The position numbers and the translations under genes are program-made. A stretch of DNA of 64,000 nucleotides from Candidatus Doudnabacteria bacterium (lineage in GTDB: Bacteria; Patescibacteriota; Doudnabacteria; UBA920), in NCBI GenBank assembly GCA_963837465.1, contig CAWINB010000004.1:330853-394852 (forward strand). The letters run 5' to 3'. Numbering within the stretch: the stretch's first letter is position 1; the number at the start of each line of letters is the position of its first letter. Positions 35,930-55,174 of this stretch are shown here, piece after piece. Below the pieces are notes generated by a model. The model was not told the DNA's origin. It saw only the letters and a program-made list of their open reading frames with translations, and made no database searches.

Positions 35930-35934
35930 GGCCT

Positions 35935-38582: not shown

Positions 38583-39614
38583 ATGCAAAATACAGCAGTA
38601 GCAACTATGAACCCGCCTATGCTGGCGGTTGCAGAAGACTTGTCGCCGATAGAAATTGTCTATTTGGCCACAAGCGAGATTCGGCCTGATAAAAATCAGC
38701 CCCGTAAATCTCTAGACAGTAAGAAAATTAAGGAAATGGCGGAAAGCATTAAGGCCGTTCGGGGGATTATAAATCCCATCGAAGTCGACCAAGACTATAT
38801 TATTGTTACGGGACAGCTCCGCTGGGAAGCCGCTAAGGTGGCGGGGTTAGAAAAAGTGCCGTGCAAAATAATAGAAATCAGCGATGAGGAGCGCTTCCGC
38901 AGGCAAGTAGTGGAAAACTTGCACCACAACGTGATGAGCGATATGGATATTGCTAAAGCATTTGCTAAGATGCTTAACATTCTACCTGGTAGCAGGTTGC
39001 AGGGAAAAGACGCTGGCCTTAGCCGCTTGGCTGAAGATATTGGTAAAAGCGTGGACTACATCAGCCAGCATTTAGACCGATTGGAAGACTCTGGGCGCAT
39101 TCAGGAAGCTTTGAGTTCGGGAAAAATTTCTTTTACCCACGCAAGAGAGACAAAGAAAGTTCCCGCTGGCTTCAGGGAAGCCGTAGAGAAAAAAATGCTG
39201 GCGGGCGAGTTTCCCCATAGCGGTTCCATAGCGGAATTGGCTAAAGGCTTAAAGAGGAATCCAGATAAAGCCGACCAAATTTTGGCATTTAATTTTACGG
39301 AGTTAAAGTCGCCTGAGGAAGTTAAACAGGCAGTATCCAAAATTGCATCTCCTGCGGCGGATGCTTCGGGGGCAGTAGAGGAATTCAATAGAATTATAAA
39401 TGGGCTTATGCACTGGCTTGAAAACACCCCGTCGTCCTATGCCGCTGAACACCCCGAATTGAAAATCAACCAAACGCTAACCAAGCTCGGCAAGGAGATT
39501 AAGAAATGGCTGAAAAATCTGAAAGAATTTCAGGCTCGAGCGGAAGTTAAGGGGCAGACGATGTTGGATATGGATATCCCCGAAATAACAGTAGATGATA
39601 TCCCCGAATTCTAA
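38583..39614 (+). CDS. ParB/Srx-like nuclease-domain protein
   Basis: IRPDKNQPRKSLDSKKIKEMAESIKAVRGIINPIEV...VTGQLRWEAAKVAGLEKVPCKI is the ParB N-terminal domain pattern. Confidence 0.75.
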   Translation: MQNTAVATMNPPMLAVAEDLSPIEIVYLATSEIRPDKNQPRKSLDSKKIKEMAESIKAVRGIINPIEVDQDYIIVTGQLRWEAAKVAGLEKVPCKIIEISDEERFRRQVVENLHHNVMSDMDIAKAFAKMLNILPGSRLQGKDAGLSRLAEDIGKSVDYISQHLDRLEDSGRIQEALSSGKISFTHARETKKVPAGFREAVEKKMLAGEFPHSGSIAELAKGLKRNPDKADQILAFNFTELKSPEEVKQAVSKIASPAADASGAVEEFNRIINGLMHWLENTPSSYAAEHPELKINQTLTKLGKEIKKWLKNLKEFQARAEVKGQTMLDMDIPEITVDDIPEF

Positions 39615-39632
39615 AATTAAAGACATAACCAT

Positions 39633-40682
39633 ATGAACAATATGACAACCTTCACTAAACAGTGGACTTCCAATAGGCCTAGAATTTTCGGGGTCTTTGG
39701 GAAAACCCAGCAGGATGACACATTTGAAATTTTAATTCCAAAATTTCTTGACTACGCCCAATTTGATTTGAAACTGGCCAAAGAGACCATCGGAAAATAC
39801 AAAGAATCTTTGGGTTGGGTGACAAGGTATCTGCCCGACGTGGAACGCCCCGCCCAAATGACGCTGGAAGATGTTACCCGAATTAAAAAGCAGGTGGCAA
39901 TGCGTGGCAATAGCGAGGCTCGGACTAACTCCATTATCTTCGCCTTGCGGAAGTTTTTGGACTATTGCGGCAAGCGGATGCAGATTGAAACCATTGACCC
40001 AAAGACCATAGAGCCGCTGAAAATCCCCAAGCGGGAAGTTATCTACCTTAACAAGGACGAGATAAAAAATCTGCGTGATGTATTTGACTTAGCCAACAAG
40101 CGGGAGTTCCGAATGCGGGTGCTGGTGGAATTTCTGCTCGGCACGGGAATGAGAATCTCTGAAGCGCTATCGGTCAATCGTGAGCAGATTAATTATGACA
40201 GCAAGGAAATAAAAATTGTCGGCAAGGGCAACAAGGAGCGCACAGTTTTTGTTTCCGATGATGCCTTAGGCTGGATAAAAAGGTATCTGGATACCCGCAC
40301 GGATGACAATCCTGCTGTCTTTATAACCTTTGGCGAGCAAGAAAGGTTAAGGCGGGGCGACTTGGCAGAATTATTAAGAGGTTATGGAATAAAAGCGGGG
40401 CTACAGAAGAAAGTTACGCCGCATATCTTGAGACACTCATCGGCAACCACGATGATGCGGAAAGGCTGTCCTCTGCCTTACATCCAGCAGTTGCTCGGCC
40501 ACGCCGACATTAAAACGACCGCCAAATATTATCTTGGCGTTGATAAACAATCCGTCAAAGATGCTCACGAAAAATATCTTAAGTTCGACCACCACCGTTT
40601 GGGAATGGCGGCACCTGTGCGTAAAGGTATTGACTTGGATAGCTACCTTGAGTATTTCTCGGCCTATCTTCCGAAAGAGTAG
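39633..40682 (+). CDS. Tyrosine recombinase/integrase, class B (copy 2)
   Basis: GMRISEALSV, HILRHSSATTM, LGHADIKTTAKYY. Has a ~30-aa C-terminal extension. Confidence 0.9.
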   Translation: MNNMTTFTKQWTSNRPRIFGVFGKTQQDDTFEILIPKFLDYAQFDLKLAKETIGKYKESLGWVTRYLPDVERPAQMTLEDVTRIKKQVAMRGNSEARTNSIIFALRKFLDYCGKRMQIETIDPKTIEPLKIPKREVIYLNKDEIKNLRDVFDLANKREFRMRVLVEFLLGTGMRISEALSVNREQINYDSKEIKIVGKGNKERTVFVSDDALGWIKRYLDTRTDDNPAVFITFGEQERLRRGDLAELLRGYGIKAGLQKKVTPHILRHSSATTMMRKGCPLPYIQQLLGHADIKTTAKYYLGVDKQSVKDAHEKYLKFDHHRLGMAAPVRKGIDLDSYLEYFSAYLPKE

Positions 40683-40823
40683 AACAACAGCACCCGCCTG
40701 ATATTTATCAGGCGGGTGTTTGTTTTTAATTTTGAACCCGTCAAAAATAATGTTATAATTTAGGTAGTTTATGCACGCTGAAATATGAGCGTCATAGTAT
40801 ATAAAACAGTATAGGGAGCGGAT

Positions 40824-41861
40824 ATGGATACAAATTACCCCAATAAAATAAACAAAATTTTAAAGCCTAAGGCCGATAAGCGGTTGCCTTTGGTTATTGA
40901 CCTTTTTGCTGGCTGTGGAGGCTTGGCTTTGGGTTTTGAAGCGCAGGGTTTTGAAACTTTAGGCTATGAAATGGATAAAGACTGTTGCGAAACCTATAAT
41001 AAAAATTTAACTGGTAAATGTATACAGCAGTTTTTGGATGTTAATAGTGATTTTCCCAAAGCGGAAATTGTGATTGGCGGTCCACCTTGCCAGCCATTCA
41101 GCGTTAGGGGAAAACAAAAAGGTTTGGCCGACGAGCGGAACGGTTTTCCAGCTTTTATTGCCGCCGTTGAAAAAGCCAAGCCCCGCTTTTGGATGTTTGA
41201 AAATGTGAGAGGGTTATTTTACAAAAATAAAGAATATTTAAACGAAGTAATAGAAACGCTAAAAAATCTTGGTTATTTTGTTGAGTCTCATTTAGTTAAT
41301 GCTTCCAATTATGAAGTTCCCCAAAACAGGGAGAGGGTTATAGTAATAGGCTATAAAAATGGAAGTTTTAAATTTCCCCAAAAGCTCGGCACTAAAGTGA
41401 CGGCTGGGGAAGCTTTGGGCGAAATGGCCTTATCTGCTCCTAAGGGTTCAAGGTATTTGACCCCAAGTATGGACACTTATGTTGCTAAATATGAAGCGGC
41501 TTCTAAATGTGTTGTCCCAAGAGATTTGCATATGCACCTACCAGCAAGGACTTTGACGTGCAGGAATTTGTCGGGTTCTACAAGCGATATGCACAGAATT
41601 AAATTACCAAACGGCAAGCGTAGACAATTACTCGTTAGAGAGGCCGCTCGCTTGCAGAGCTTTCCTGATAAGTTTGAGTTTTGCGGGAGCGAGAGCAGTG
41701 CTTTTAAACAAATAGGCAATGCTGTGCCGCCTATGCTTTCCTACCACATTGCTGGTGCTGTAAAAGAATATTTGGAATCCGTAAATAAAACCCCGACCAA
41801 ACATATCAGAAATAATTCATTTGCTTACCAATATCAGCAAGCTATAAAATTCAATGTATAA
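40824..41861 (+). CDS. DNA (cytosine-5) methyltransferase
   Basis: DLFAGCGGLALGF (motif I), GGPPCQPFS (IV), ENV (VI), PQNRERVIVIG (VIII), GNAVPP (X). Confidence 0.9.
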   Translation: MDTNYPNKINKILKPKADKRLPLVIDLFAGCGGLALGFEAQGFETLGYEMDKDCCETYNKNLTGKCIQQFLDVNSDFPKAEIVIGGPPCQPFSVRGKQKGLADERNGFPAFIAAVEKAKPRFWMFENVRGLFYKNKEYLNEVIETLKNLGYFVESHLVNASNYEVPQNRERVIVIGYKNGSFKFPQKLGTKVTAGEALGEMALSAPKGSRYLTPSMDTYVAKYEAASKCVVPRDLHMHLPARTLTCRNLSGSTSDMHRIKLPNGKRRQLLVREAARLQSFPDKFEFCGSESSAFKQIGNAVPPMLSYHIAGAVKEYLESVNKTPTKHIRNNSFAYQYQQAIKFNV

Positions 41862-42873
41862 AATCTTAGATAAGTTCGCTCCCTCGGCGGAATTTAAAAC
41901 GAAGTCAAAGCAAAATAAAATTTTAGTTGACCAAGCCGCTTACGCCTTGATGAAGTTTGGTGTGCCTTTTGACGGCCTGTCTTTTAGGAGAATAGAGCGG
42001 ATGGCATTGTCCTTTATGGCGGTTTGCCAAGTTAGCGCAAAAAGCCACTGGCCAAAAACTAAGGATTTTACGGACAAGGTTGCTATGAAAACTAGGGACA
42101 TTATCAATTACGTTAATAAAAATTTTCAGGAAAATATATCGTCTGGTTCCTATGACGACATCCGCAGAAAAGATTTAAAATTGCTGGTGCTTGGAGATAT
42201 TGTCATTAGGACTAACCCCGAAGCGGCAAGGAACGACTCTACCAGAGGCTATGCGCTGAATCCAGCTTACAAAACAATAGTTAAGGAAATTGGCAAACCT
42301 AACTGGGATACCACAGTCAAAAAGTTTTTAAAAGGTAAAAAGACGGTTGCGGAATTACTTTCTTCCAAACGCAATGTGGCGACTATTCCCGTCGTGCTTC
42401 CCTCGGGAGCCGAGCTTCAATTTTCGCTTGGAGAACATAACGTATTACAAAAAGCCATTATAGAAGAATTTTTGCCTCGCTATGGCTATGGCTCCGAAGT
42501 TTTGTATGTTGGCGATACAGCCGACAAGTTCTTATATTTGAACAAAGAGAAGCTGGAAGCTTTAAAGTTCTTTGAGCTATCCCACGGCGAATTGCCCGAT
42601 GTTGTCGCTTATTCAAAAAGCAAAAATTGGTTATACCTTATAGAAGCCGTTCACAGTTCGGGACCGATATCGTCCATTAGGCTTGCGGAGCTAAAAAAGC
42701 TCACACAAAAATGCACCGCCGACATTGTATACATAACAGCATTTTTGGACAGGGAAACTTTTAGGAAATTTATAAAAGACATTGCCTGGGAAACCGAAGT
42801 TTGGATTGCTACCAACCCTGACCATTTGGTGCATTTTAACGGCGACAAATTTTTAGGACCCTACAAACAGTAG
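41854..42873 (+). CDS. Type II restriction endonuclease (BsuBI/PstI-like C-terminus)
   Basis: Overlaps the methyltransferase stop by 8 nt. The C-terminal LPDVVAYSKSKNWLYLIEAVHSSGPIS...IAWETEVWIATNPDHLVHFNGDKFLGPY resembles the BsuBI/PstI family as I remember it. Confidence 0.55.
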   Translation: MYKILDKFAPSAEFKTKSKQNKILVDQAAYALMKFGVPFDGLSFRRIERMALSFMAVCQVSAKSHWPKTKDFTDKVAMKTRDIINYVNKNFQENISSGSYDDIRRKDLKLLVLGDIVIRTNPEAARNDSTRGYALNPAYKTIVKEIGKPNWDTTVKKFLKGKKTVAELLSSKRNVATIPVVLPSGAELQFSLGEHNVLQKAIIEEFLPRYGYGSEVLYVGDTADKFLYLNKEKLEALKFFELSHGELPDVVAYSKSKNWLYLIEAVHSSGPISSIRLAELKKLTQKCTADIVYITAFLDRETFRKFIKDIAWETEVWIATNPDHLVHFNGDKFLGPYKQ

Positions 42874-43047
42874 GGTTAGCAGGAGAGCCTATGAAAATCG
42901 CTTAAAAGGCGATTTTTTGCTATTATTTAGATATAAAATTGTTGGATAACAGTCGGGGAAAAAACTATATATAGTTAAACAAGATTTTAAAATTTTATAT
43001 AGTTTCAGCTAACCTTAAACCAAAAAAATACTGAAGTAGATTGGCTT

Positions 43048-43614
43048 ATGATAAATAGAAAAATGATTTTTGAAGAAGTAAAAAATTGCTCCAAAAAATT
43101 AGGTTTGGGTAAGGCGAAAGTTAGTTTGTTAATTGTAAACAAGTCAGCGAAAAACAGGTTGGGCAATTTGGAATTAGAAGGAGACATCTATGCGAATCTT
43201 TTGCCCCTAAAAAGTGGTTATAAAATTAGATTTAATATAACGACCATAAATGATAATAAGTTAAACCGTAAGCAGTTGCGTGGATTGGTTTTTCACGAGT
43301 TAACCCACATATTGCGTCACGAATACACAAAATTTATCAGAGGCAAAGACAAAATTTCCTACGCCGAATTTGTAAAAGCCAATAAAAATTATAGTTATTG
43401 GCACGGCAGTTCCATAATTTCTGATATTAACGAATTAGAGGAGCTTTTGATTGATATTTTTGTAACTAGGCTGTGTATATTAGAAGGGTTTTCTTGGGGT
43501 TTGCCAATAGAGGATGAAAGTGGCGAAGCTGTGAATGATAGGAATTATTTGTCCAAAAGAGCCGAAGACTTTTATAGTTCCCTAAAAGAAAAAATCAGTA
43601 ATTTAAATGTTTAG
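43048..43614 (+). CDS. Putative zinc metallopeptidase (HExxH)
   Basis: The single HELTH motif in VFHELTHILRHEY gives a SprT/WLM-like flavour. 188 aa. Confidence 0.4.
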   Translation: MINRKMIFEEVKNCSKKLGLGKAKVSLLIVNKSAKNRLGNLELEGDIYANLLPLKSGYKIRFNITTINDNKLNRKQLRGLVFHELTHILRHEYTKFIRGKDKISYAEFVKANKNYSYWHGSSIISDINELEELLIDIFVTRLCILEGFSWGLPIEDESGEAVNDRNYLSKRAEDFYSSLKEKISNLNV

Positions 43615-43623
43615 AAAATCTTT

Positions 43624-43806
43624 GTGTATATGGCACTCAAAGAAAAGCAGGCTTACTATAAATGCAAAAAGTGCGGCGATGAGATTTATTGGAATACCCA
43701 CAAAAGGTATACCAAGTGCAGTTGCGGAGCTTTGGCGGTAGACGGGTGCGAAGAATATGTAAGGGTAATAGGCAACGCTAAGGACTGGGGGGAGATAAAA
43801 AAATAA
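43624..43806 (+). CDS. Small zinc-ribbon protein
   Basis: CKKCGDE...CSCG...DGC cysteine pairs. 60 aa. Confidence 0.4.
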   Translation: MYMALKEKQAYYKCKKCGDEIYWNTHKRYTKCSCGALAVDGCEEYVRVIGNAKDWGEIKK

Positions 43807-43817
43807 TTCTAGAAATT

Positions 43818-44237
43818 ATGTCAAACCAAGACAGGTTAAAAATGTCCGATGTATACAGAGATTTTGTTCCAATTTTTGGCAAGAAAGTTCCGTTTGCAGA
43901 AGCTTACCCGCAAATTGAGAATATTAAAGTTGAGGTTGAACAACGAGGACAAGGAGTAAGAGAGTGGAATAAAAATTGGGTCTTGAACGGTATAAATGAC
44001 TTTAGACAATATATAGATTGCAGTAATCCTTTATGCGCCAAAGGCGGTTTTGCGTTGGGTGAAATGGTGCGAGATATGGTGCGCAACAAAGACGAATCCT
44101 TTGAGCAGAGTAAAATTTGTATTGGCAACGAGGGGTCGCCAAAAGGTAAAAGAATTTACCGAAAGTGTATGAATTATTTTACTGTTAAGGTAGCTATTCA
44201 ATACAAAAAGGAAGTAGACAAAGAAAATAAAGAATAA
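43818..44237 (+). CDS. Hypothetical protein
   Basis: 139 aa, in the same operon-like string. Confidence 0.35.
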   Translation: MSNQDRLKMSDVYRDFVPIFGKKVPFAEAYPQIENIKVEVEQRGQGVREWNKNWVLNGINDFRQYIDCSNPLCAKGGFALGEMVRDMVRNKDESFEQSKICIGNEGSPKGKRIYRKCMNYFTVKVAIQYKKEVDKENKE

Positions 44238-44241
44238 ATTT

Positions 44242-44856
44242 ATGCCTGAAAGACCAGCCCCCGAAGAGTTTAATAGGCCAATAGAAAGTCGGCAAGACCA
44301 AACTACGCCGATAGAGTTTCCGCACGCCGAAGCTGGCTTGGAGGCTTACCTTAAAGAGTATCCAAACGAAGCGTCCAGAGCGGAAAAGTTACGAGCCGTG
44401 TTCCAAGAGTTTTTACAGCGGGAAATAAAAAACATAAAAATATTCAAATCAGAACAGCTTGGTGCCGAATTGCCGTATACTTCTATTAAGATTGGGGAAT
44501 TAGCAAGAAGCATTTACAAAAAATACGCTGAGGCAGACAGTTTACCTGTTGAAGCCCCCGATGTCGCACCAGTGGCTCAAGAATTTGTATTTAATTCAGC
44601 CTTGTCCACGGATGAGGGTAATGAGTTTAACTTTGTAGAGGAGGCTATGCACGAAGCCGTTAAACATTTGCCCGCCGCTCTTAAAGCACTTAGAGAGGGC
44701 AAAGCTCCCGAAGAACGGGAAGTTTTTACTCTTGGTATGCCAACTAATGTATTAGGCAGGGTGTCGCCCGAACTGGCGGACAGAATAAACAAAGAACCTT
44801 TTGAGGAATTGGGCAAAGTCTTTGCTGAATTGGTAAAAGCAGAGAATGCGAGCTAA
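44242..44856 (+). CDS. Hypothetical protein
   Basis: 204 aa, acidic. Overlaps the next ORF. Confidence 0.35.
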   Translation: MPERPAPEEFNRPIESRQDQTTPIEFPHAEAGLEAYLKEYPNEASRAEKLRAVFQEFLQREIKNIKIFKSEQLGAELPYTSIKIGELARSIYKKYAEADSLPVEAPDVAPVAQEFVFNSALSTDEGNEFNFVEEAMHEAVKHLPAALKALREGKAPEEREVFTLGMPTNVLGRVSPELADRINKEPFEELGKVFAELVKAENAS

Positions 44857-45817
44857 AGCAATAAAATTTCAAGGCGTATCTTTGAGTAGCAATATAGCAA
44901 TTAGAACGGCAGAAAATTTAGTTGAAAAAGGCTTGGTTACTCAAGACTTTGCCGTAGCCGAAAAAGACCATTTGCCGTATTTGCAAATTGAAGCCGAGGT
45001 TCCCGTTTCCCTTAGCCCGTCTAAAATAAAAGCCCTGCAAGTGCCAGTTGGTTTTTTTGCCGATGCTTTAAAAGAAAGAAAGTTGCCAGAAGTCAAAAGG
45101 ATAGAAGCTGGTAAGCCGCAGTTTGGAAAAGATGTAAATGAGGTGTTAGCCCAAAGGGGTATACACGAGCAAATGGCTGATGACCAAAAGAAGACTAAGC
45201 GTGGGGTCATACTTGATATACTCAAAAAGGTTGGCAACACTTTTAAGCCAAAACCTGAAACAAAAATTACCACCCTTTATGGTTTAAATGATTTAACCAC
45301 CAAGTCGCCGTCTATGGTTAAAGCGGCAAAAGTCCGCAAGCAGGAATTTGGCGGCACGCTTGGCCAAAACCTTTTGGAAAGGGCTAAGCCCAACGAAAGA
45401 GTGTTTACTGCCGAAATGATGCACCTTAGTCCTCGGTTTAGAAAAACTCAGCTAAGAAGAATGCGGGTGCTTGCTATAACTTTAGAAGATTTGGAACAGG
45501 GTAAAAATTTATTAGAGGTAGCACCAGAGCATATACCAACCCCCGAAGAAGTAAATTTGGTTTTTAGGGAACTAATAGGCAAGGAATACAGGGAAGTGCG
45601 TAAACGAGAAGACGAGCAAGGTCTTTACTTGTTAGAGGTGGAAGTTGCTGGAGAAGCGGAAGGTGAAATTACCGAATACGCTTATATGCGAAAAGGCCGT
45701 TATGCGGAAGGTCAAATTTCGGCAACCGAAATTCACGTTACTTATTACAAGGACGGCAAACCCGTAAGCGGAACATCGGCGGCAAGGTATGTTGATGGGG
45801 AATGGAGAATTCTTTAG
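44846..45817 (+). CDS. Hypothetical protein
   Basis: 323 aa with no motif I recognise. Confidence 0.35.
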   Translation: MRAKAIKFQGVSLSSNIAIRTAENLVEKGLVTQDFAVAEKDHLPYLQIEAEVPVSLSPSKIKALQVPVGFFADALKERKLPEVKRIEAGKPQFGKDVNEVLAQRGIHEQMADDQKKTKRGVILDILKKVGNTFKPKPETKITTLYGLNDLTTKSPSMVKAAKVRKQEFGGTLGQNLLERAKPNERVFTAEMMHLSPRFRKTQLRRMRVLAITLEDLEQGKNLLEVAPEHIPTPEEVNLVFRELIGKEYREVRKREDEQGLYLLEVEVAGEAEGEITEYAYMRKGRYAEGQISATEIHVTYYKDGKPVSGTSAARYVDGEWRIL

Positions 45818-45833
45818 TAATAGCATAAAAATG

Positions 45834-46049
45834 CCAATTTAGTTTTCCTACAAAAAGCTATTAAAACTCAATCGGCTAATTTAGGCTCTTAAACAATAGT
45901 GGGTAGCACAGAGGGTAAACTTTGGGAGGGGATAACTGTGTTGCTACAACTTTTTGTAATCGCTAACATCTGTGTAAGACTTTAAAAATTAAATATCTTT
46001 GCTGACCGAAGCGTAGTGCAGGAATTATTTTTTTACACCTCGGATTAAA
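45834..46049 (+). repeat. Right-end repeat R2, copy a
   Basis: About 216 nt, homologous to 47498-47720. Shared blocks are ctattaaaac, aaacaatagtggg, ggtaaactttgg, ggataact, cgctaacatc, tttaaaaattaaatatc and ttacacctcggattaaa. Confidence 0.8.
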
Positions 46050-46056
46050 CACCTCC
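46050..46056 (+). repeat. att core copy 3 (cacctcc followed by atacggctaca)
   Basis: Heptamer preceded by ...cggattaaa and followed by the short left-end type. Confidence 0.6.
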
Positions 46057-46124
46057 ATACGGCTACAACTTCCTCACTTAGCAAAAATCGCCCAAAAGGC
46101 GGTTTTTTTTGTTATAATTTAACT

Positions 46125-47486
46125 ATGCACGAACCAACTGAACCTAATAATCAACCCTGTCCAGGTTGTGGCTATCCAGCTCAAGCTGGCCACGCTCCTA
46201 ATTGCCCTACTGTCAGCAAAGGCGAAAAGGAAAAAAACCTTGAAGGAGTAGAAGCAAGGAAGTATACGGCCGAGGATATACAAAATTTTCAGGGTGAATT
46301 ATCACAATTTGAAAAAATGCGTAAGGCTGATAATGCCAACTACGTCTTTGATTTTACCGAGTATTACCAATTTTTAACCCAGCACAAAAAATCTCAAGAA
46401 CGACCTTTTACACAAAGAGATGTTTCGACACCTGGCTATCAAGATTTGGAAGTTGGCATATTCAAAGGCTGGAAACAAAATTTGTTAGCCAAAAAAGACA
46501 AACTCATCCAGTCACGACCAAAATTAGCACCGATTATCGGAATGCTAGAGAGCGAGCCTACGCCAAAAACCTTAGATGAACTTCGGGATTTGTTTAGAAA
46601 ACATCCCGACTTAAATGAATTTGGCGCAGTCCAATACCAAGACGGCGTGGGAGAACAGGGAGAAAAGAAAAGCGGATTTTTGCATATCAATATGTCCCGC
46701 TATAACGGCTATGAATACGAACTACCCAAGACGGATACCAGAGTTTACTTAAACCCGCCACCCGAAGCTATACCGCAAATATCTATGGAGCTTTGTAATA
46801 TAGCACAGGCTAAAAGATTTCCGTTATATTTTAAAACCATAGATTATTCTTTTCAAAAACCCAATCCCGACAACACCAACAGGCTGGATAAGTTTATTGT
46901 TTATACAGACAAGGCGCACGTGACCGCTCTCTCCCAAGAATTAAAAACTTTGCAAAGCAAACATCCCGAATGGTTTAACGGCAGAGAATTGCCAACTATG
47001 GTTGCCAAAATGGGCGAGGGCGTGGGAGTAGCGGAAGACCCTAACGAACAACAAATGCAAAAGTTTGGCGAGCGTGGCAAGTCATTTAACGGTATGAGGG
47101 CTTTATTTTTAAAGGATGTTTGGACGGGTGTGACAAAAGACATTATCTTAGCGCAACGGACTTGGCGGCCAAGAGGCGGTAGGACTATGGAAGAAATTTT
47201 TAATGATAATCTAAAAGCTGGGCTAACTCGTAGGCAGTTACAGCCTAATGTGATAGCCGATGTTATCGGCAAGGCTTGGGCGGCACAATTAGATAGTTCA
47301 AGAATGGGAAGTCTTCCCGACAGCAGAATAGCAGATGAAGTTGATAATGCCGTGGCAAGAACTATGGCTGATGTAATTCCTAACATTACCCCTGATTCCT
47401 TGCAACCAGCCGTGCAAAACCAAATCAACAAAAAAGCAAAGGATTATTTTATTAACCCTAATAATTTAGCTTTTAATCAAATTTAA
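46125..47486 (+). CDS. Hypothetical protein with an N-terminal Cys-rich knuckle
   Basis: 453 aa. The N-terminus contains CPGCGYPAQAGHAPNCP. The -10 box lies about 9 nt before the ATG, so the 5' UTR is very short or absent. Confidence 0.45.
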   Translation: MHEPTEPNNQPCPGCGYPAQAGHAPNCPTVSKGEKEKNLEGVEARKYTAEDIQNFQGELSQFEKMRKADNANYVFDFTEYYQFLTQHKKSQERPFTQRDVSTPGYQDLEVGIFKGWKQNLLAKKDKLIQSRPKLAPIIGMLESEPTPKTLDELRDLFRKHPDLNEFGAVQYQDGVGEQGEKKSGFLHINMSRYNGYEYELPKTDTRVYLNPPPEAIPQISMELCNIAQAKRFPLYFKTIDYSFQKPNPDNTNRLDKFIVYTDKAHVTALSQELKTLQSKHPEWFNGRELPTMVAKMGEGVGVAEDPNEQQMQKFGERGKSFNGMRALFLKDVWTGVTKDIILAQRTWRPRGGRTMEEIFNDNLKAGLTRRQLQPNVIADVIGKAWAAQLDSSRMGSLPDSRIADEVDNAVARTMADVIPNITPDSLQPAVQNQINKKAKDYFINPNNLAFNQI

Positions 47487-47497
47487 GGGATTATGGC

Positions 47498-47720
47498 CAG
47501 TTTAGTTTTTGTATAAGAATCTATTAAAACTAAATCGGCTTTAAACAATAGTGGGCGGTAGTGGGGGTAAACTTTGGAGGGGATAACTTTGTTGCTAAAA
47601 AATTTTACTGCCGCTAACATCCGAGTAGCAATTTAAAAATTAAATATCATCGCTGTAAGCGAGCTTGAAAATAAATAGTGGGAGCGAGTGGGGGTGAACA
47701 ACTTTACACCTCGGATTAAA
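47498..47720 (+). repeat. Right-end repeat R2, copy b
   Basis: See 45834-46049. Contains ataaatagtggg (leader-like) and ends ...ttacacctcggattaaa. Confidence 0.8.
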
Positions 47721-47737
47721 CACCTCCTTTCTAAGGA
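47721..47737 (+). repeat. att core copy 4 (cacctcctttctaagga)
   Basis: 17/17 identical to the 16S 3' tail. Confidence 0.85.
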
Positions 47738-47996
47738 ACAATATGCACCCTTTTCCCTTTTCGAAGGGGAATGTTGGTTCACATTCCGTAGGTCGTCGTT
47801 AATTTTTTCGAAAATTAGCGCACTTCTTGAAACTTCAAAGAACGACGTAAACTGGTGGTTTTGTAACGGTAATTCTACCGTATTTAGCAATAAATACGGC
47901 CTAAGCGCCATTAATGCTTGGGATCACTATTTAGCCGTTAAAGGTTAAACACGAAATTGCAAAGAAAGTCTCGGCCGTTATGGTGCGAGGCTTTTT
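47721..47996 (+). other. 16S tail + trailer + terminator segment, copy S-C
   Basis: UUCG hairpins at 47754-47769 and 47800-47817. ggttttgta, ggtaattctacc and atcactatttagccgttaa are conserved. Terminator at 47967-47996. Confidence 0.75.
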
Positions 47997-48968
47997 ATGT
48001 TCTATGCAAAAACGTCACTTGAATCAACCGCTAAAGTAGGAACTTTAGCGCCAATCTCCAATGATTTGACAATGAGCCAGCTCATTCCAATGTTTTTAAA
48101 GTACGGTCAGTTTGAATTAATGTTCTCACAGAACACGCTCACCAAATACGACGAGTGTTTAAAATGGGTTGTTAGGGACATCGGCGATTTGAAGGTCACG
48201 GAGTTAAGCCTGTTCCATTTTACCGAGTTAAAACAGATAATAACTAACCGTGGTTGCGGCACCAGCCGCGTTGCTTCCATGGTGTTCTCCATGAAGAGTT
48301 TCCTTAAGTATTGCAAGGACTATCTAGAGCTGCCGGTCATGGATTACAAAAAGATAAGGTCGCCGCGGTTTAAGCGCCGTGAAGTGATTTATTTAACTAA
48401 CGAAGAGATTGAGCAGTTTGTCAGCGCCATTAAAATAGAGAATGGCCCTCGTGCCATAAATTCGGTACGTATGGATGGCCTAAGGTTTCGGGTACTGGTG
48501 GAAGTCTTGCTCGGCACCGGCATGCGCATTTCTGAAGCCTTGTCGCTTAACAGGGATATGGTTGATTTTGAAAAGGCCGAAGCCAAGATTATAGGCAAAG
48601 GCAGCAAAGAACGTACAGTATTTTTCAGCGAGCGGTCGCTTGATTGGGTCAAGCGTTATCTATCCCTGCGTACAGACAATGAACCCGCTTTGTTTCTCAC
48701 CCAGCAGAATACGCGCCTGTCCAAGATAGATGTGCCCGGCTTCTTTAAACGGTACAGCAAGAAGGCCGGTATAACGAAGAAACTGACACCGCACGTGCTC
48801 AGGCATACCTGTGCTACGAACCTCTTGTTTAACGGCTGTCCCATAAACAATGTTCAAGTAATTTTAGGGCATGACCGGCTGGAAACCACCTGTCGCTATT
48901 ATCTCGGTGTTGACAAAACAAAAGCCAAAGAGGCACATGGCAACTTTTTAAATTATCAATTGTCGTAA
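47997..48968 (+). CDS. Tyrosine recombinase/integrase, class A (copy 3)
   Basis: GMRISEALSL, HVLRHTCATNLLFNGCPI, LGHDRLETTCRYY. Confidence 0.9.
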   Translation: MFYAKTSLESTAKVGTLAPISNDLTMSQLIPMFLKYGQFELMFSQNTLTKYDECLKWVVRDIGDLKVTELSLFHFTELKQIITNRGCGTSRVASMVFSMKSFLKYCKDYLELPVMDYKKIRSPRFKRREVIYLTNEEIEQFVSAIKIENGPRAINSVRMDGLRFRVLVEVLLGTGMRISEALSLNRDMVDFEKAEAKIIGKGSKERTVFFSERSLDWVKRYLSLRTDNEPALFLTQQNTRLSKIDVPGFFKRYSKKAGITKKLTPHVLRHTCATNLLFNGCPINNVQVILGHDRLETTCRYYLGVDKTKAKEAHGNFLNYQLS

Positions 48969-49412
48969 TTTAGATACTTTGCGTGCGCGGCTTTCAGCGC
49001 GCGTTTATCGGTGCCCAGATAATACTGGGCCGTGGTGCGAATGTCCGAGTGCCCCAAGAGTTCCTGGATATAGCGGATGTCGCAACCGTTTTCCAGCATG
49101 ATCGTCGCGGCCGTGTGCCGCAGCGTATGCGGCGTGACTTTTTTCTTGATCCCGGACTTGGCCGCATACCTGCGGAATTCCTTGCCCAGGTCATAGCGGG
49201 CAAGCCGCTTGGCTTTGCCGAACGTCACGAAAAGGGCCAGGTTGTCATCGGTTCGGCTTTGCAGATACTTATTTATCCATTCCAAAGCGCGATCGCTTAT
49301 GAAAATTACCCGTTCCTTGTTGCCTTTGCCGATTATGGTAGCTTCTTTGGTTTGCAAGTTTATGCTGTCGCGGTTAAGGCTTAAAATTTCCGAAATACGG
49401 CCGCCGGTGTCG
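48956..49412 (-). pseudogene. Class B tyrosine recombinase, C-terminal half only
   Basis: The minus-strand reading ...DTGGRISEILSLNRDSINLQTKEATIIGKGNKERVIFISDRALEW...HTLRHTAATIM...LGHSDIRTTAQYY runs only from the catalytic Arg region onward. The upstream part is replaced by IS256-like sequence. Confidence 0.75.
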
Positions 49413-50210
49413 GAAACTTATGGTGTTGAGATTTCGCAGTCAGCGATTTCCGGCATCACGGATAAAGTTTTTCCACAAATGAAGGAATGGCAATCCAAAC
49501 CGCTGTCGTCATTATATCCGTTGCTTTATTTGGACGGTCTGTGGTTTAAAGTTAGGGATAGCGGCAAAATTGTAACCAAGTGTGCCTATATTGCTTTGGG
49601 TATTTGGATTTGCGAGAGCGAGGGCGCAAAATTTTGGTTACAGGTTTTGAGCGAGATAAAAAATCGGGGCGTGGAGTCTGTGCTTATTGCTTGCGTGGAC
49701 GGCTTGAAAAGTTTTCCCGAAGCTATTAAAACTGTGTTCCCGGAAGCCGAGGTGCAAGCCTGCATAGTTCACCAAATTCGTCACACCATAAAGTTCGTGT
49801 CCCACAAAGACCGAAAAACTTTATGCGAAGATTTAAAGAGCGTTTATGCTGCACCATCTGAGGTGGTTGGGTTACAGGCTTTGGAGGAGGTTAAGCAAAA
49901 GTGGCCCCAATACAGTTTCTGCTTAAACAAGTGGGAACAGAGATGGACTGACCTTGCGCCATTCTTTGGCTATCCCGAGCAGATTCGGCGGATAATGTAT
50001 ACCACTAACGCCATAGAAAACCTAAACCGCCAGTTTCGCAAAGTCACCAAGACCACGCAGGTCTTTCCGCACGATGACTCTCTGCTTAAATTGCTCTGGC
50101 TGGCGCAGGACGAGTTGGCAAGGAACTGGGTTATGCCCATGCATAACTGGGGTCAAATTATCACCCAGTTTGCTATCCTGTTTCCAGATAAAATAAATAC
50201 AGAAAATTAA
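49413..50210 (+). pseudogene. IS256-family (Mutator-type) transposase fragment
   Basis: YGVEISQSAISGITDKV...LYLDGLWFKVRD...ACVDGLKSFPEAI...CIVHQIRH...TTNAIENLNRQFRKVTK. The N-terminal part is missing and a segment after YIALGI appears to be deleted. The N-terminus of track ORF 49209 is antisense integrase sequence. Confidence 0.7.
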
Positions 50211-50382
50211 TTATTAACTGAACTTTCCCAAATTTGCCCGGCGGTAGAATAGCTCAAAAACCTTAAAGAATTTGGGCAAAATGGGCTATTTACAGCCTAT
50301 GTGGGTATCTCACTTGCAACAGTTTCGATTATATGTTAATATGGTTCTGAAAGATACGGTTAATCGTATCTAATGGAAACAT

Positions 50383-51003
50383 ATGCAGTTTTACGAACTT
50401 AAGGAACAATTAAAGGATTTTATGGTTTTTTCCTTAGCCGATATTCGGAAGGTAGAGCCGAAGTTTTACAGGCCACGCTTGAGTGAGTGGCAGGATAAGG
50501 GTTTGCTGAAGAACTTGCGCCGGGGCTTTTATATGTTCGCCGATACAAAGCTAAATGAAGAAACGTTTTTTTTAATCGCCAATAAGCTCTATGCGCCGTC
50601 CTACGTTTCCTTTGAAATGGCCTTGTCTTATTACAACTTAATTCCTGAAGGCGTATATTCCATAACTTCTGCTACGAGCAAGAAGACAGAAAAGTTTAAG
50701 ACGCCGGTTGGGGAATTTTCCTACCGCAGCTTAAAGCCGCAGCTGTTGTTTGGTTACAATTTGCAGGGCAACGGCAAGCAGCAATACAAGTTGGCGGAAA
50801 TTGAAAAGGCAGTTTTAGATTATCTTTACTTAAATCCAAAGTCTACCAGCAAGGCGGATTTGCAGGAGTGGAGATTTAATGCCCGGGAATTTTTAGCCCG
50901 AGCGGATATGGACAAGTTTAATAGGTATGTTAAAGTTTTTAATAGCCCAAGTTTGGAAAGACGGGCAAAGCAATTTATAAAGTTTATTAAGCAAGCACAA
51001 TAA
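50383..51003 (+). CDS. abiEi: AbiEi-like antitoxin/transcriptional regulator
   Basis: 206 aa immediately upstream of, and abutting, the AbiEii gene. The N-terminus is winged-helix-like. Confidence 0.6.
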   Translation: MQFYELKEQLKDFMVFSLADIRKVEPKFYRPRLSEWQDKGLLKNLRRGFYMFADTKLNEETFFLIANKLYAPSYVSFEMALSYYNLIPEGVYSITSATSKKTEKFKTPVGEFSYRSLKPQLLFGYNLQGNGKQQYKLAEIEKAVLDYLYLNPKSTSKADLQEWRFNAREFLARADMDKFNRYVKVFNSPSLERRAKQFIKFIKQAQ

Positions 51004-51779
51004 TGCTGACTTTAGAACAAATTGAACAGCAGTATCCGGAAAACTTACGAGGCTTTAAGCGTTCGCTGCTTCGGGAGTATTTGCAGTATAAGATTTTAGA
51101 AATTATTTTTGCCTCTGAGTATGCCACCAAGTTAGTTTTTATCGGCGGCACGGCTTTAAGGATAGTTCACGACAACAGTCGTTTTTCGGAAGATGTGGAC
51201 TTTGATAATTTCGGATTAACGGCAGCCGAGTTTGAGGAGACATCGCAAAAGGTTAAGGCAGGACTTACAGCGGAAGGGTTTAATGTTGAAATAGGCTTTA
51301 GGGGTAAGGAATCCTACCGCTGTGATGTAAAGTTTCCCGGCTTACTCTTTGGGAGCGGACTTTCGCAGCACGAAGGCGAAAAGATACTGGTGCAAATAGA
51401 TAGTTTATCCCAAGGCTTTAGCTATAAGCCTGAACGTAAGATATTAAACAAGTTTGATGTTTTTACGGAAATTTTTACCCCTTCGCCCGAGTTATTACTA
51501 TCTCAAAAGATTAACGCTATTTTTACACGGAAGCGGGCAAAGGGCAGGGACTTTTATGATGTTGTGTTTTTACTATCCTTTACAAAGCCAAACTATCAGT
51601 TTTTGACGCAAAAGTGGGGAATTGAGAATGGTGAGGGATTAAGAGCAAAGCTAATGGAAATGGCTTCCAAGCTCGATTTTAAGGATTTGGCACGGGATGT
51701 AGAGCCGTTTCTATTCAATCCGAGTGACAGTAAGAAGGTTGAGTTATTCGCGGATTTTATTAAGCAAGCTAAGTTGTAA
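51003..51779 (+). CDS. abiEii: AbiEii/DUF1814 nucleotidyltransferase toxin
   Basis: LREYLQYKILEIIF...LVFIGGTALRIVHDNSRFSEDVDFD is the AbiEii pattern. Confidence 0.75.
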   Translation: MLTLEQIEQQYPENLRGFKRSLLREYLQYKILEIIFASEYATKLVFIGGTALRIVHDNSRFSEDVDFDNFGLTAAEFEETSQKVKAGLTAEGFNVEIGFRGKESYRCDVKFPGLLFGSGLSQHEGEKILVQIDSLSQGFSYKPERKILNKFDVFTEIFTPSPELLLSQKINAIFTRKRAKGRDFYDVVFLLSFTKPNYQFLTQKWGIENGEGLRAKLMEMASKLDFKDLARDVEPFLFNPSDSKKVELFADFIKQAKL

Positions 51780-51784
51780 GTTAG

Positions 51785-51858
51785 CAATTAATTGATCTTT
51801 TAAATTTTTAATACAGTAGTAGTTTGTCAGGCAATTTCCGTTTACAACGGCTCAGAAA
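51785..51858 (+). repeat. Right-end repeat R1, copy b
   Basis: Nearly identical to 34588-34662. Confidence 0.85.
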
Positions 51859-51865
51859 CACCTCC
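51859..51865 (+). repeat. att core copy 5 (cacctcc followed by ctccggctaca)
   Basis: Heptamer preceded by ...ggctcagaaa. Followed by a short left end with the terminator cccgctc gtaatt gagaggg ttttt. Confidence 0.6.
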
Positions 51866-52033
51866 CTCCGGCTACAGAAAATGCAAATACAGAAACTGTC
51901 CAAGAATGAAATCGCCCGCTCGTAATTGAGAGGGTTTTTGATTATAAGAGACCGATGGGTTGTGGTTCATGTTACCTCTGGACAGTTTTCGGCCGTAGGT
52001 TATAATTAAGGCAAGATATTAACTAATTATTAT

Positions 52034-52891
52034 ATGGGGACTTATGCAGGAGGCAGGCCAGGTGGAGAAGTTGACCCGGGGCTTATTGCCGGTCAAATTT
52101 TGGACAAATCAAAAAAAGGCGAAAGCAAACAGAAACAGCCTTTAGCCGAGGCTCTTGCTGATAAGGCATTATCGCGAGACCAGATGTTTCAAAAGCTGTA
52201 TAGTATGGTGCCAGCAATGGAACGCTATGCCGAATCACGGCTCGGCAGCCATAAAGCCAATGCGGCCGACATTGTGAGCAAGGCCATGGCCTACGTGATT
52301 CAGAGTGCAAGCGTTACCTTTTGGGTGCTTATTTCCGGAAATTTTTTTACGAAAAAACTTAATCAAAATCGCAATGTTCAAGAAATACGCGTGTTTTGAA
52401 ATTTTCATTTCAACACACACATATCCCTTGAAGCAACTTAACTAGTTAAACCACGATTTTTTGTCTTAATTGTGTTTTAAAAATACAATCTCACGCACCC
52501 AAAAGGTAACGCTCTCATTCAGAGTATAGATAACGGGGTTTTTCGGTTTAATGCGCCGTTGAGCAGTTGGTTTAAAATCTCGGTAAATGGGCGCATCCAG
52601 GATCGTTTTCGGTCGGCAACTAACGACCCCTTGGATCGAGCGGAAAGCATGGATGCGCCTATGGAGTCGGCAAAAGGGGATGAAAGCTATCGCCAGTATG
52701 CTGATTCTACTCCAAATATCGAGGAAAAGTTGGTGGCACAATCCAACGAACAGGCGCTTAAAAGAGGTATCGCCGTGCTCCTAAAACAGAACCAAAAACT
52801 TGGCGACGTTATGAGTTTGGTTGCCGACGGTTTAACCAACCAAGAAATCGCTGAGCGGCTAGGCGTTAATAGCAACCAAGTCAAAGTATAA
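52034..52891 (+). pseudogene. Sigma-70-family/LuxR-HTH-like regulator gene, split by a MITE and truncated by IS3
   Basis: Removing 52307-52525 fuses 52034..52306 to 52526..52891 in frame. The region-4-like ...LVADGLTNQEIAERLGVNSNQVKV stops abruptly at the IS3 end. Confidence 0.6.
52307..52516. mobile_element. MITE (210 bp) with 22-bp terminal inverted repeats and a 9-bp target duplication
   Basis: gcaagcgttaccttttgggtgc (52307-52328) vs gcacccaaaaggtaacgctctc (52495-52516), 20/22 complementary. Flanked by attcagagt at 52298-52306 and 52517-52525. The AT-rich interior has no ORF. Confidence 0.8.
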
Positions 52892-52965
52892 TGGACTGGG
52901 AATCCTGTACAGGTATATTAGATAGAAAATCGGGGGTATAATACTGTCAGGAAGGAATAACAAAA

Positions 52966-53256
52966 ATGAAAAAGGTGTTTACCCCGCAGCAGAAAGCTGC
53001 GGTAGCCCTGGAGGCCATTAAGGGCGAATTAACAATTGCACAGATTGCCAGTCAATACGAAGTTCATCCCACTCAGATCGCAGTCTGGAAGAAACAGGCC
53101 ATAGAGATTTTAAAGGCCGGCTTTACCGATAAGCGTAAAAAGGAAAATTTTGACCAGCAGAGGATAACTGATGACCTCTACAAGACCATCGGCCAGCGCG
53201 ACATGGAGCTGGCCTGGCTTAAAAAAAAGTTGCAGCCATTTGGACTTTCAGACTAA
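52966..53256 (+). CDS. IS3-family transposase OrfA (HTH)
   Basis: MKKVFTPQQKAAVALEAIKGELTIAQIASQYEVHPTQIAVWKKQ... plus a leucine-zipper-like end. Confidence 0.8.
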   Translation: MKKVFTPQQKAAVALEAIKGELTIAQIASQYEVHPTQIAVWKKQAIEILKAGFTDKRKKENFDQQRITDDLYKTIGQRDMELAWLKKKLQPFGLSD

Positions 53257-53701
53257 ACAGAATTTAATTATTCCCGGTCTCCAAGGCCTTTCCATTGCCA
53301 GGCAAGCAAAGCTCCTTAATATTTCCCGCTCCGGTTTTTACTACAAGCCCGCGTCCCTAAGCCCTGAAGAAATTCGCATCATGGGCTGTATAGATAAAAT
53401 CTTTACCGATTGCCCATTCTACGGCTCCCGCAGGATCAAGCACGAGCTGGAAAGTCAGCCGTACAAAATTTTCATCTGTCGAGAGCATGTGCAACATCTT
53501 ATGCGCCAGATGGGACTGGAAGCTATATATCCAAAAAAAATTACTACCATACCTAACCTGCAGCACCTTAAATACCCCTACTTGTTAAAAAATTTGCCTA
53601 TTGTGAGGCCTAACCAGGTCTGGGGCACGGATATTACCTACATTAAGCTACTCGGCGGCTTCTGTTATTTAGTCGCCTTACTGGACTGGTTTTCCCGATA
53701 C
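53228..53701 (+). pseudogene. IS3-family transposase OrfB, truncated after the first catalytic Asp region
   Basis: Track ORF 53171..54139 is a chimera. Transposase similarity ends near 53701, and residues from GEYRDTKNQ onward are unrelated. Confidence 0.7.
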
Positions 53702-54227
53702 GGGGAATATAGGGATACAAAAAATCAACCGTACATAGAACTGCAAAAATCCGGGTGGAAAGGTGAATTAGGTCAAGAGCTAAAAAATAGATTTAGCTCT
53801 GCCTCTGAACAATCGCATGCAAACTTGTTTAAAATGATGTTTTGGAGAGGCTCAAGAACAGAAAAAGAAAATGGTCAATTTAAGATAGTAGATCGTTTTG
53901 AATTTTTTGACAATCCAAACCCGCCAGATTGGATGATAACTAACCTCCACTGGCTGATAGACACCTCTTTTACCATACTGATTTTGTTGTCAGAAACTTT
54001 TCAGGAACCTCAAAAAAACAGTGATTTTAAAAAAGCAGTACAGACTAAATATTCAAAGTATAAAAAATACATACTTGAGAACCAGGACAAAATATTGATT
54101 AGACATAAGCTCACATATATTCCAGAAGAAGAAGTTTAATTTTTTGGTCAAACTCCACTGTCGATATTTTATAATTGATTTGTTATGACCGTTGGTTGTT
54201 TTTTAAAATTTTTGTTATAGTTTTATC

Positions 54228-54483
54228 GGAGTAGTGAGAGTTGGTGTTTTTAGCCCTTTTGGCTAAAACACTGCCGTGTAATAAGTCCGCCATCCGCCTT
54301 GTGCGGTGGATTTGCCCGAGTAGGGTGAAAGGTGCGGTTAAAAGCGGCAGTGGCTTACGGGTCCACCAAGAGTTCAGCCGAGCAATAACTGGAGCAAAAC
54401 CGAGGGCTGGAAAGCGAAATAGGATTTTCCTCTCGCTTGCTACTCCCGCAAAGAACTTCCAATTTTGGGAGTTTTTTGTTTTT
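54228..54483 (+). ncRNA. Candidate ~255-nt structured RNA ending in an intrinsic terminator
   Basis: Extended -10 tgttatagt at 54213-54221. Stems gtgttttagcc/ggctaaaacac, ctgccg...cggcag and cagcc...ggctg. Terminator aacttcc aatttt gggagtt plus a T-run at 54454-54483. The overlapping 83-aa ORF looks non-genic. Confidence 0.3.
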
Positions 54484-55152: not shown

Positions 55153-55174
55153 ACGGGATAACCGATATACGGAT

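Follow-up and report, generated by a model that had tools for sequence, protein, structure and literature searches.

A tandem array of integrative elements at the 3′ end of the 16S rRNA gene in a Doudnabacteria-like bacterium of the candidate phyla radiation (CPR) includes a 1.67-kb unit, termed U3, that carries a single gene and no integrase. The array lies in a 64-kb stretch of DNA (the window; contig CAWINB010000004.1 of assembly GCA_963837465.1, positions 330,853 to 394,852), to which all coordinates without a locus prefix refer. U3 is read here, with moderate confidence, as a non-autonomous unit resembling the cis-mobilisable elements (CIMEs), lying within an accretion array of tyrosine-recombinase elements. 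The evidence comes from the boundaries of the unit, the homology of its right arm to that of its neighbour, a junction in another contig from which the unit is absent, and an intact gene under constraint.

Five tandem units (U1 to U5; Table 1) follow the 16S rRNA gene, each opening at the heptamer CACCTCC (the core), with a last copy at the end of the array at 59936. The heptamer occurs 11 times in the window against 3.8 expected, and six copies on the + strand, namely the five unit starts and that at 59936, stand in the context of an attachment (att) site. The array has the hallmarks of elements that integrate at the 3′ end of an RNA gene in that an integrase adjoins the target, the 3′ end is restored and a distal repeat is present. 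The order 16S, core, integrase is found in the window and in five further loci (L006, L121, L123, L128 and L130).

Structure of U3

U3 is composed, in order, of a core, 27 nt, a terminator of the host type, a TGnTATAAT box, one gene of 453 codons and a right arm of 225 nt, R2′. The terminator has the form CGCC-CAAAA-GGCG followed by T8, and the extended −10 box, TGTTATAAT, lies 6 nt 5′ of the ATG of the only credible open reading frame (ORF), the mRNA of which is probably leaderless. A preliminary description of the sequence had proposed exactly this make-up, a core with a short left end, a ttataat box, one 453-residue ORF and a right end of the R2 type, and each part was found.

Several properties of U3 are those of a CIME. 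Its att sites are of the type used by the neighbouring autonomous elements, with cores at 46050 and 47721, an arm R2′ homologous to R2 (the right arm of U2) and a 25-nt perfect direct repeat, TTTACACCTCGGATTAAACACCTCC, although the sequence to the right of its left core is unlike all class A left ends. It has no integrase, excisionase or transfer gene, its sole credible ORF encoding a HopA1-family protein. Finally, it is placed in tandem with autonomous elements, between U2 and U4, both of which have intact class A integrases. When the five integrases of the window were used in a tblastn search at E ≤ 1 no match, remnants included, was seen in U3 (46050-47720) or in U5 (51859-59935), in agreement with the earlier view that both are integrase-less.

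Right arms and the empty junction

That an R2-type arm closes the unit preceding U3 as well, as the preliminary description had stated, is borne out by BLAST (E = 6e-30, 76% identity). Aligned with the core included, R2 (45834-46056) and R2′ (47496-47727) match at 174 of 250 columns, that is 70%, or 85% when gaps are left out, and differ by several indels. A further R2 arm is present in L132, a Logan contig from run ERR11523672. R2′ shows 79-82% identity to this copy, and the R2 of the window is 97.5% identical to it across the core-proximal 81 nt. On these alignments R2′ is a member of the same arm family as R2 but of a separate lineage. A recent local duplication is ruled out as the origin of U3 because R2′ has diverged from R2 while the two R2 copies in the window and L132 have stayed so close.

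The order in L132 is homologues of the last genes of U2 (86% nucleotide identity), a module of fluoride riboswitch, CrcB and DUF190, then R2, CACCTCC and a U4-like long left end (86%), with no U3. Such a junction is what absence or excision of U3 would give, R2-CACCTCC-TTTCTAAGGAAC being the corresponding empty site of the window, and U3 is thus a precise insertion or deletion at the core. The fluoride module (L132:2067-2902; riboswitch RF01734, 53 bits) is located between the U2-like last gene and R2; since it is not in the window, cargo varies right beside the right arm.

A second set of repeats brackets a larger block. An R1-type arm with its core, 76 nt in all, is found at the end of U1 and again at the end of U4 (Table 1), and in the related metagenome-assembled genome (MAG) of L014 a U1-like element ends R1-CACCTCC-short end at a point where the window has the 17.2 kb of U2-U3-U4 in between. 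This suggests that U2-U3-U4 entered together as one composite, or that the block could form a circle, the ends of which would join as R1-CACCTCC-TTTCTAAGGAAT.

The same 76-nt perfect repeat might have allowed a short-read assembler to splice a circular U2-U3-U4 into the chromosome. An artefact of this kind, or a local tandem duplication or an assembly collapse or join at repeats more generally, is nevertheless very improbable. R2 and R2′ are too dissimilar, at 70-85% identity with several indels, for collapse or mis-joining; independent contigs reproduce the junctions, L132 that of R2, core and long end and L014 that of R1, core and short end; and the source contig is 868 kb long. The simple local tandem duplication that the preliminary description had named among the observations that would refute its proposal is likewise at odds with the separate lineage of R2′ and with the empty junction of L132.

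R2 and R2′ also share the composite motif GGGTAAA-N(0-12)-GGGGATAA, which in the window is confined to these two arms (0.02 expected) and which among the 132 fetched loci was seen only in ten loci, L086-L095, that contain HopA1-like cassettes. This hints that the R2-type arms are linked to the repeats that bound those cassettes. A known RNA was not recognised in the R2 arms, an Rfam search at E ≤ 1 over 45700-48050 giving a chance match only, and a structured-RNA reading was set aside as RNAalifold on the two copies gave two compensatory pairs, too few to claim a structure.

Attachment sites

Junctions were surveyed in the window and in loci fetched via integrase homologues, 25 in all. All 13 that adjoin a 16S gene read ...GGAT-CACCTCC-TTTCTA(A/G)GGA. 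At the 12 internal or terminal junctions TTTCT follows the core in nine, the other three being short left ends, of which L014 has one and the window has two. At 17861, 34663 and 47721 it is the long trailer CACCTCCTTTCTAAGGAA(C/T) that comes after the core. Where the native sequence resumes after an element, in L121 and L130, the core is followed by TTTCTAAGGA, as at all 13 junctions beside 16S, and the terminal junction of the window has TTTCT. The right arms vary among elements, all of them finishing in a short A-rich stretch 5′ of the core, and an R1-type arm and a long left end are the two halves of a dyad that encloses the core (CTCAGAAA-CACCTCC-TTTCTAAG). Seven bp is the usual length of the overlap region of tyrosine recombinases. 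As CACCTCC is the sole block common to all junction types, we infer a 7-bp overlap region at CACCTCC, the simplest model of the recombination site, with crossover taking place there.

A second motif, AATAGTG, has 7 of its 10 copies in the window within att arms, which cover about 2.4% of the sequence (binomial chance estimate for this placement about 5e-10). In the long left ends it appears on the opposite strand as CACTATT. It is also present in the right arms of distant or unrelated elements in L127 and L130, and behaves like an arm-type binding motif. An extra copy is found at 15985, about 300 nt 5′ of 16S.

Short left ends

The pattern CACCTCC-NNN-CGGCTACA (CACCTCCNNNCGGCTACA) occurs exactly twice in the window, at 46050 and 51859, where U3 and U5 begin, just as the preliminary description had reported; in shuffled sequence it had a mean of 0.01 matches and two matches were reached in 0 of 100 shuffles. 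Both short ends also have terminators of their own, as claimed. That of U5 is CCCGCTC-GTAATT-GAGAGGG followed by T5, its stem being paired at six of seven positions in the window and at seven of seven in the L014 homologue. The two short ends share only the octamer CGGCTACA at an offset of +3, for which the chance at one offset is about 1.5e-5, and the layout of a spacer, a AAATCGCCC-type terminator and TGnTTATAA.

Over 86 nt, up to the T-run of the terminator, the U5-type short end matches L014:16876-16961 at 85% identity. The 16S genes of the window and L014 are about 88% identical over their well-aligning segments and no flanking genes are common to the two in the fetched stretches. Such conservation between genomes with distant 16S genes and no common flanks argues that the U5-type short end belongs to a mobile pool. 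The terminator of U3 is of a generic host type. A 26-mer of it, AAATCGCCCAAAAGGCGGTTTTTTTT, has a perfect match in L001 (15596-15621), and close variants were found four times in L121, once right after the native 16S trailer, and once within U2. An intergenic module of this form, ATCGCCCAAAAGGCGG with a T-run and TGTTAT..., is seen between genes of Doudnabacteria-like genomes with a start codon a few bases on (Table 1). Its make-up suggests a terminator with an immediate −10 box and widespread leaderless transcription units.

Several findings on the short ends weigh against U3 as a mobile, CIME-like unit. They have no TTTCTA(A/G)GGA half-site, which is present at 13 of 13 junctions adjoining 16S and at nine other internal junctions, and no CACTATT arm motif, which integrase-bearing left ends have at 204-206 nt from the core. 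With both missing, the competence of a short end as an integrase substrate is doubtful, and the left junction of U3 may be a poor or dead substrate. The octamer CGGCTACA was beside a core at no other junction in the 132 fetched loci, and the only homologous short end found, L014:16876, reads GGGATACT in its place, so that the octamer is not a conserved left-end signature. No second copy of U3, circular junction or excision product was found among the sequences compared. Lastly, the closest homologue of the U3 gene, in L001, has surroundings unrelated to those of U3, with a serine recombinase nearby, and resembles it in the coding sequence only.

On a rival reading U3 and U5 were once complete class A elements, U3 with an R2′-type arm, that lost their long left end, integrase and other cargo by deletion from the core inward to leave an immobile scar keeping one functional cargo gene. 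This is possible, though we consider it distinctly less probable than a CIME-like unit. Short ends devoid of both conserved left-arm features would be expected on this account, as would a short end made up mostly of a generic terminator and promoter such as also occurs between ordinary genes in L121 and L001 and inside U2. Decay is apparent elsewhere in the array (the class B integrase of U4 is truncated beside an IS256-family transposase fragment and U5 has an IS3 fragment), and the empty site in L132 is equally compatible. On the other hand the end point of the deletion must have coincided exactly, and twice, with the right edge of the 7-bp core; both short ends have CGGCTACA at +3 and the same layout of terminator and promoter; a homologous short end occupies an R1 junction in a second genome (L014); and no vestige of an integrase was detected at E ≤ 1.

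Alternatively, the short left end could be the original chromosome 3′ of 16S, that is the right half of the bacterial att site with the rRNA terminator, caught between insertions. The native trailer that follows the element in L121 ends in the same terminator, ATCGCCCAAAAGGCGGTTTTTT, as the short end of U3, the short end in L014 is the last junction before chromosomal-looking genes (ApbE-like, DedA-like and glycosyltransferase), and part of U5 has the higher G+C of the downstream chromosome. This explanation is nonetheless quite unlikely, since all 13 junctions beside 16S and both native junctions after an element read TTTCTAAGGA, the terminal junction of the window having TTTCT, and since U3 and U5 both finish in genuine element-type right arms. 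The mobile-pool behaviour of the U5-type short end, 85% identical between genomes with no common flanking genes, speaks against it too. As regards synteny on the native-flank reading, the upstream gene order is common to L121, L123 and L130 and nothing downstream is common, U5 included. A further idea, that CGGCTACA is the 3′ half of a 16S processing stem, was rejected as TGTAGCCG is not in the 16S leader.

The preliminary description had also supposed that a short-end unit could come to abut 16S directly and rewrite the tail of the rRNA. No example was found: none of the 13 junctions adjoining 16S has a short left end, and all retain the TTTCTA(A/G)GGA sequence. Scans of IMG/VR for the R2 end, for the core with CGGCTACA and for the U5-type block gave 0 matches each, and in a scan of one metagenome the pattern, drawn so that each of the three known short ends conforms to it, was matched once, by chance, inside a high-G+C transporter gene.

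Integrases and the movement of U3

The class A tyrosine integrases of U1, U2 and U4 are intact (PF00589, E about 1e-40), and the residues R184, K208/K211, H273, R276, H299 and Y308/Y309, as expected of tyrosine recombinases, are invariant across all five integrases of the window. Every class A unit has a second, class B tyrosine recombinase that is about 42-47% identical to class A; that of U4 is truncated beside an IS256-family (Transposase_mut) fragment at 49209-50210. The integrase family is a large one, with 1314 proteins at E ≤ 1e-60, and every close relative with visible upstream sequence adjoins 16S or another unit of such an array. A protein 97% identical to the U4 integrase adjoins 16S in the MAG contig CAWBGV010000028.1. 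In IMG/VR no relative exceeded 44% identity.

An identical integrase (P0042) comes straight after 16S in L128 and after the right arm of another unit in L127 and L129, and in L121 and L130 perfect repeats of the core and its trailer, 147 nt long in the former and at least 76 nt in the latter, enclose elements of 5 kb. Because one integrase is seen in different positions and flanking repeats are perfect, the array system is considered to be active on an evolutionary time scale.

On the CIME-like reading, U3 would have entered as a circle with its ends joined as R2′-CACCTCC-short left end (ATACGGCTACA). Recombination of this circle with the U2/U4 junction, R2-CACCTCC-long left end, would leave the 25-nt identical repeats now seen. 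Besides its R2-type arm and its one gene, the unit carries a terminator that insulates it from upstream transcription and an extended −10 promoter. As U3 encodes no recombinase, its movement would depend on the integrase of a neighbour, that of U2 being the most likely candidate to act in trans because U2 has the same R2 arm type as U3; whether by this enzyme or another, we infer that U3 may still be competent for recombination. Alternatively, U3 may be carried passively in a moving composite, such as the U2-U3-U4 block bracketed by the 76-nt perfect repeats. U5 would be a unit of like kind, larger and further decayed, whose short left end is homologous.

The preliminary description saw in U3 a satellite or cassette mobilised in trans by the class A integrases. 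The part of this that stands is a discrete unit bounded by cores, with three class A integrases nearby that are intact and a junction in L132 that is empty; for the movement itself this empty junction is indirect evidence, and neither excision product nor second copy came to light. Mobilisation in trans is plausible, with co-mobilisation in cis and a fixed remnant as live alternatives. A bolder proposal, in which the whole array acts as an integron-like capture platform, must be regarded as unlikely. Minimal self-insulated cassettes such as U3, each with a terminator, a promoter, one gene and a right arm, would on this view enter, leave and change places through the class A integrases of adjacent elements acting in trans.

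The cargo gene of U3

The protein encoded by U3 belongs to the HopA1 family by Pfam (PF17914, E = 2e-7), scoring 31.5 bits where the cut-off is 22.7. An AlphaFold2 model built from a 21-sequence alignment had a mean confidence score (predicted local distance difference test) of 83.8, and the top Foldseek matches of this model were 4rsw and 4rsx (HopA1; probability 1.00, E = 3e-4 to 9e-4), with 9dk1_B (LxmY, a lanthipeptide phospho-Ser/Thr lyase) and 3i0u (OspF) also matched. The protein has 13-17% sequence identity to these solved structures, with TM-scores of only 0.23-0.33 after normalisation to the query. It is likely to have a lyase-like fold, with any enzyme activity being putative. A sequence search of the PDB gave nothing significant, PADLOC gave no match for defence annotation, and no match was obtained by tblastn in collections of phages and plasmids. 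To our knowledge a type III secretion system is not to be expected in a CPR bacterium, and the 1.67-kb unit contains no chaperone gene.

The gene is 90% identical at the amino acid level to its closest homologue, in L001, with dN/dS (the ratio of nonsynonymous to synonymous substitution rates) of 0.05 and dS of about 1, and by this comparison is under strong purifying selection. The gene was not seen elsewhere with the same flanks among the loci compared. The flanks of L001-L003 have no similarity beyond the coding sequence, apart from the 26-nt terminator match elsewhere in L001.

More distant HopA1-like homologues, about 50% identical to the U3 protein, were observed on the groundwater metagenome contigs L086-L095 in a 1.7-kb unit that is 99.7% identical among them. 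The unit is bounded by a 17-nt direct repeat, TAAATGGGGATAAGTCC, and by 56-nt inverted repeats, with tandem repeats of CCCATTTAC 5′ of the ORF. Upstream of one identical homologue gene (P0011), which lies in a repeating unit of 1,919 nt, at least five different neighbours were seen. From this arrangement the HopA1-like homologues are seen to be mobile cargo elsewhere.

Other features of the array

The 16S rRNA gene (Rfam SSU_rRNA_bacteria, 1274.6 bits) is the only one in the window and at 1,584 nt compares with a model of 1,533 positions; in the related MAG of L006 a group I intron (RF00028; L006:8071-8566) splits the 16S gene. No tRNA genes were detected in the 64-kb window. Upstream of 16S are found, in order, genes for RNase Y, YmdB, a methyltransferase, NusA and ClpP, and the same gene order is seen at the 16S of three CPR assemblies (L121, which is labelled Candidatus Doudnabacteria, L123 and L130) with NusA at 79-84% amino acid identity. 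Beyond U5 and the last core come TTTCT and then a LytR_cpsA_psr gene from 60018, taken to be chromosome.

The cargo of the integrase-bearing units (18138-34662, 34663-46049 and 47721-51858) is mostly of defence or addiction type, including type III and type II restriction-modification, a reverse transcriptase, BrnT/BrnA and AbiEi/AbiEii. Since such modules dominate this cargo, the array anchored at 16S functions as a defence island. A LOOT RNA motif (Rfam RF03000, of unknown function) is found just 3′ of the U1 integrase at 19177-19305 and again 5′ of the array at 689-802. The motif was also seen within elements of three other genomes (L006:16987-17107, L121:11875-11990 and L130:13494-13611).

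Table 1. Coordinates of the 16S rRNA gene, the units of the array and their att-associated features. Positions are those of the window unless a locus is given; IS, insertion sequence; SDR, short-chain dehydrogenase/reductase.
Feature	Position	Strand	Length	Integrase	Remarks
16S rRNA gene	16287-17870	+			Last 10 nt (CACCTCCTTT...) include the first attachment core, 17861-17867
U1	17861-34662		16.8 kb	Class A	Type III restriction-modification, rolling-circle Rep-like protein, class B integrase, reverse transcriptase, BrnT/BrnA
U2	34663-46049		11.4 kb	Class A	ParB-like protein, class B integrase, C5-methylase with BsuBI/PstI-type nuclease
U3	46050-47720		1.67 kb	None	Single HopA1-like gene
U4	47721-51858		4.1 kb	Class A	Truncated class B integrase, IS256-family fragment, AbiEi/AbiEii
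U5	51859-59935	+	8.1 kb	None	IS3-type transposase fragment, SocA/Panacea protein, PNPOx, DoxX, SDR (Pfam)
R1 arm and core, end of U1	34594-34669	+	76 nt		Left copy of perfect repeat bracketing U2-U3-U4 (100% identity)
R1 arm and core, end of U4	51790-51865	+	76 nt		Right copy of the same repeat
R2, non-coding right arm of U2	45834-46049	+			AATAGTG at 45895; GGGTAAA..GGGGATAA at 45913-45935
R2′, non-coding right arm of U3	47496-47720	+			AATAGTG at 47547 and 47674; GGGTAAA..GGGGATAA at 47565-47586
Left copy of direct repeat TTTACACCTCGGATTAAACACCTCC	46032-46056	+	25 nt		Perfect; includes core 46050-46056
Right copy of direct repeat TTTACACCTCGGATTAAACACCTCC	47703-47727	+	25 nt		Perfect; includes core 47721-47727; U4 long left end follows
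U3 short left end	46057-46124	+			ATA, CGGCTACA (46060-46067), terminator (46089-46110), extended −10 box TGTTATAAT (46110-46118)
U3 gene	46125-47486	+	453 aa		Only gene of U3; HopA1-family protein, phospho-Ser/Thr-lyase-like fold (predicted)
U5 short left end	51866-51947	+			CTC, CGGCTACA (51869-51876), terminator (51915-51939), TGATTATAA (51939-51947)
U5 non-coding right end and final core	59613-59947	+			R5 arm with AATAGTG at 59896, then final core and CACCTCCTTTCT (59936-59947)
Class A tyrosine integrase of U2	34943-35929	+			PF00589, E = 1.2e-39; catalytic residues conserved
Class A tyrosine integrase of U4	47997-48968	+			PF00589, E = 2.3e-40; directly 3′ of U3
Class B recombinases	27917-28885, 39633-40682, 48956-49357 (−); L006:10963-11811 (−); L007:6489-7433				
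AATAGTG in right arms	45895 (R2), 47547 and 47674 (R2′), 59896 (R5)	+			
AATAGTG in the three long left ends	18067, 34867, 47925	−			204-206 nt from core (CACTATT motif)
ATCGCCCAAAAGGCGG module sites	L121:15065-15108, 16042-16085, 17175-17218, 18595-18638; L001:15596-15621; window 46083-46118, 42894-42929				

Comparison with known systems

U3 can be compared with the gene cassettes of integrons in that it is a single ORF without a recombinase, bounded by recombination sites and lying in an array beside a tyrosine recombinase gene. It differs in having its own terminator and promoter, in a right end that is a 225-nt element-type arm and not an attC hairpin, and in neighbours that are complete elements with their own integrases, there being no attI/Pc platform. 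The identification of U3 as an integron gene cassette was for this reason rejected, given its own terminator and TGnTATAAT box and an R2′ arm held in common with a full element. As for the cargo, the U3 protein resembles HopA1, a type III effector of Pseudomonas syringae, and the OspF/SpvC/LxmY lyases in its Pfam match above threshold and its best structural matches, and differs from them in an extra N-terminal Cys-rich segment, extra helical regions and a CPR host.

U3 is unusual in its extremely small size, its self-contained expression design and the existence of an empty-site counterpart. Should units of this type be mobile, they would rank as the simplest cargo modules that move in this system and would serve to probe the minimum that an integrase of this family needs (a core and one arm); if they are not, they would be a record of array decay in which useful genes were kept. 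Were the array a capture platform, CPR bacteria with their tiny genomes would gain an exchangeable locus for accessory and defence genes on an essential single-copy rRNA gene, and a cassette with a short left end that landed first would alter the nucleotides after the anti-Shine-Dalgarno sequence. A full-text literature search turned up no report of elements that integrate at the 16S 3′ end in any CPR bacterium, although absence there is not proof of novelty.

CIMEs and site-specific accretion have been described for ICESt1 and ICESt3 of Streptococcus thermophilus. Both PMC3146451 and PMC5704250 cite the concept. Like a CIME, U3 is flanked by att sites of its neighbours' type, has no recombination or transfer genes, stands in tandem at one chromosomal site and is expected to move only via the integrase of a neighbour or inside a composite. 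It differs in its target, the 3′ end of the 16S rRNA gene, in its single-gene format of 1.67 kb and in being known here from sequence alone. Moreover, its left end is not a truncated version of the left end of a neighbour and consists of a distinct, minimal terminator and promoter without half-site and arm motif. A further parallel is seen in the genomic islands of Dehalococcoides, which lie in tandem 3′ of ssrA, a single-copy essential RNA gene, are bounded by a repeat of its 3′ end and have their integration genes at the left edge (PMC3146451). Fifteen of these islands lack the integration module and were considered by the authors to be possible CIMEs or fixed remnants (PMC3146451). Those islands use the serine recombinase DsiB, a 20-bp repeat and a tmRNA target (PMC3146451), whereas the array described here has tyrosine integrases, a 7-bp core and 16S rRNA. 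The principle of integrase-less, att-bounded units in tandem arrays is thus already known from the streptococcal CIMEs and the Dehalococcoides ssrA islands; the attachment site at 16S, the minimal single-gene format and the non-canonical left end were, within the literature searched, not previously known.

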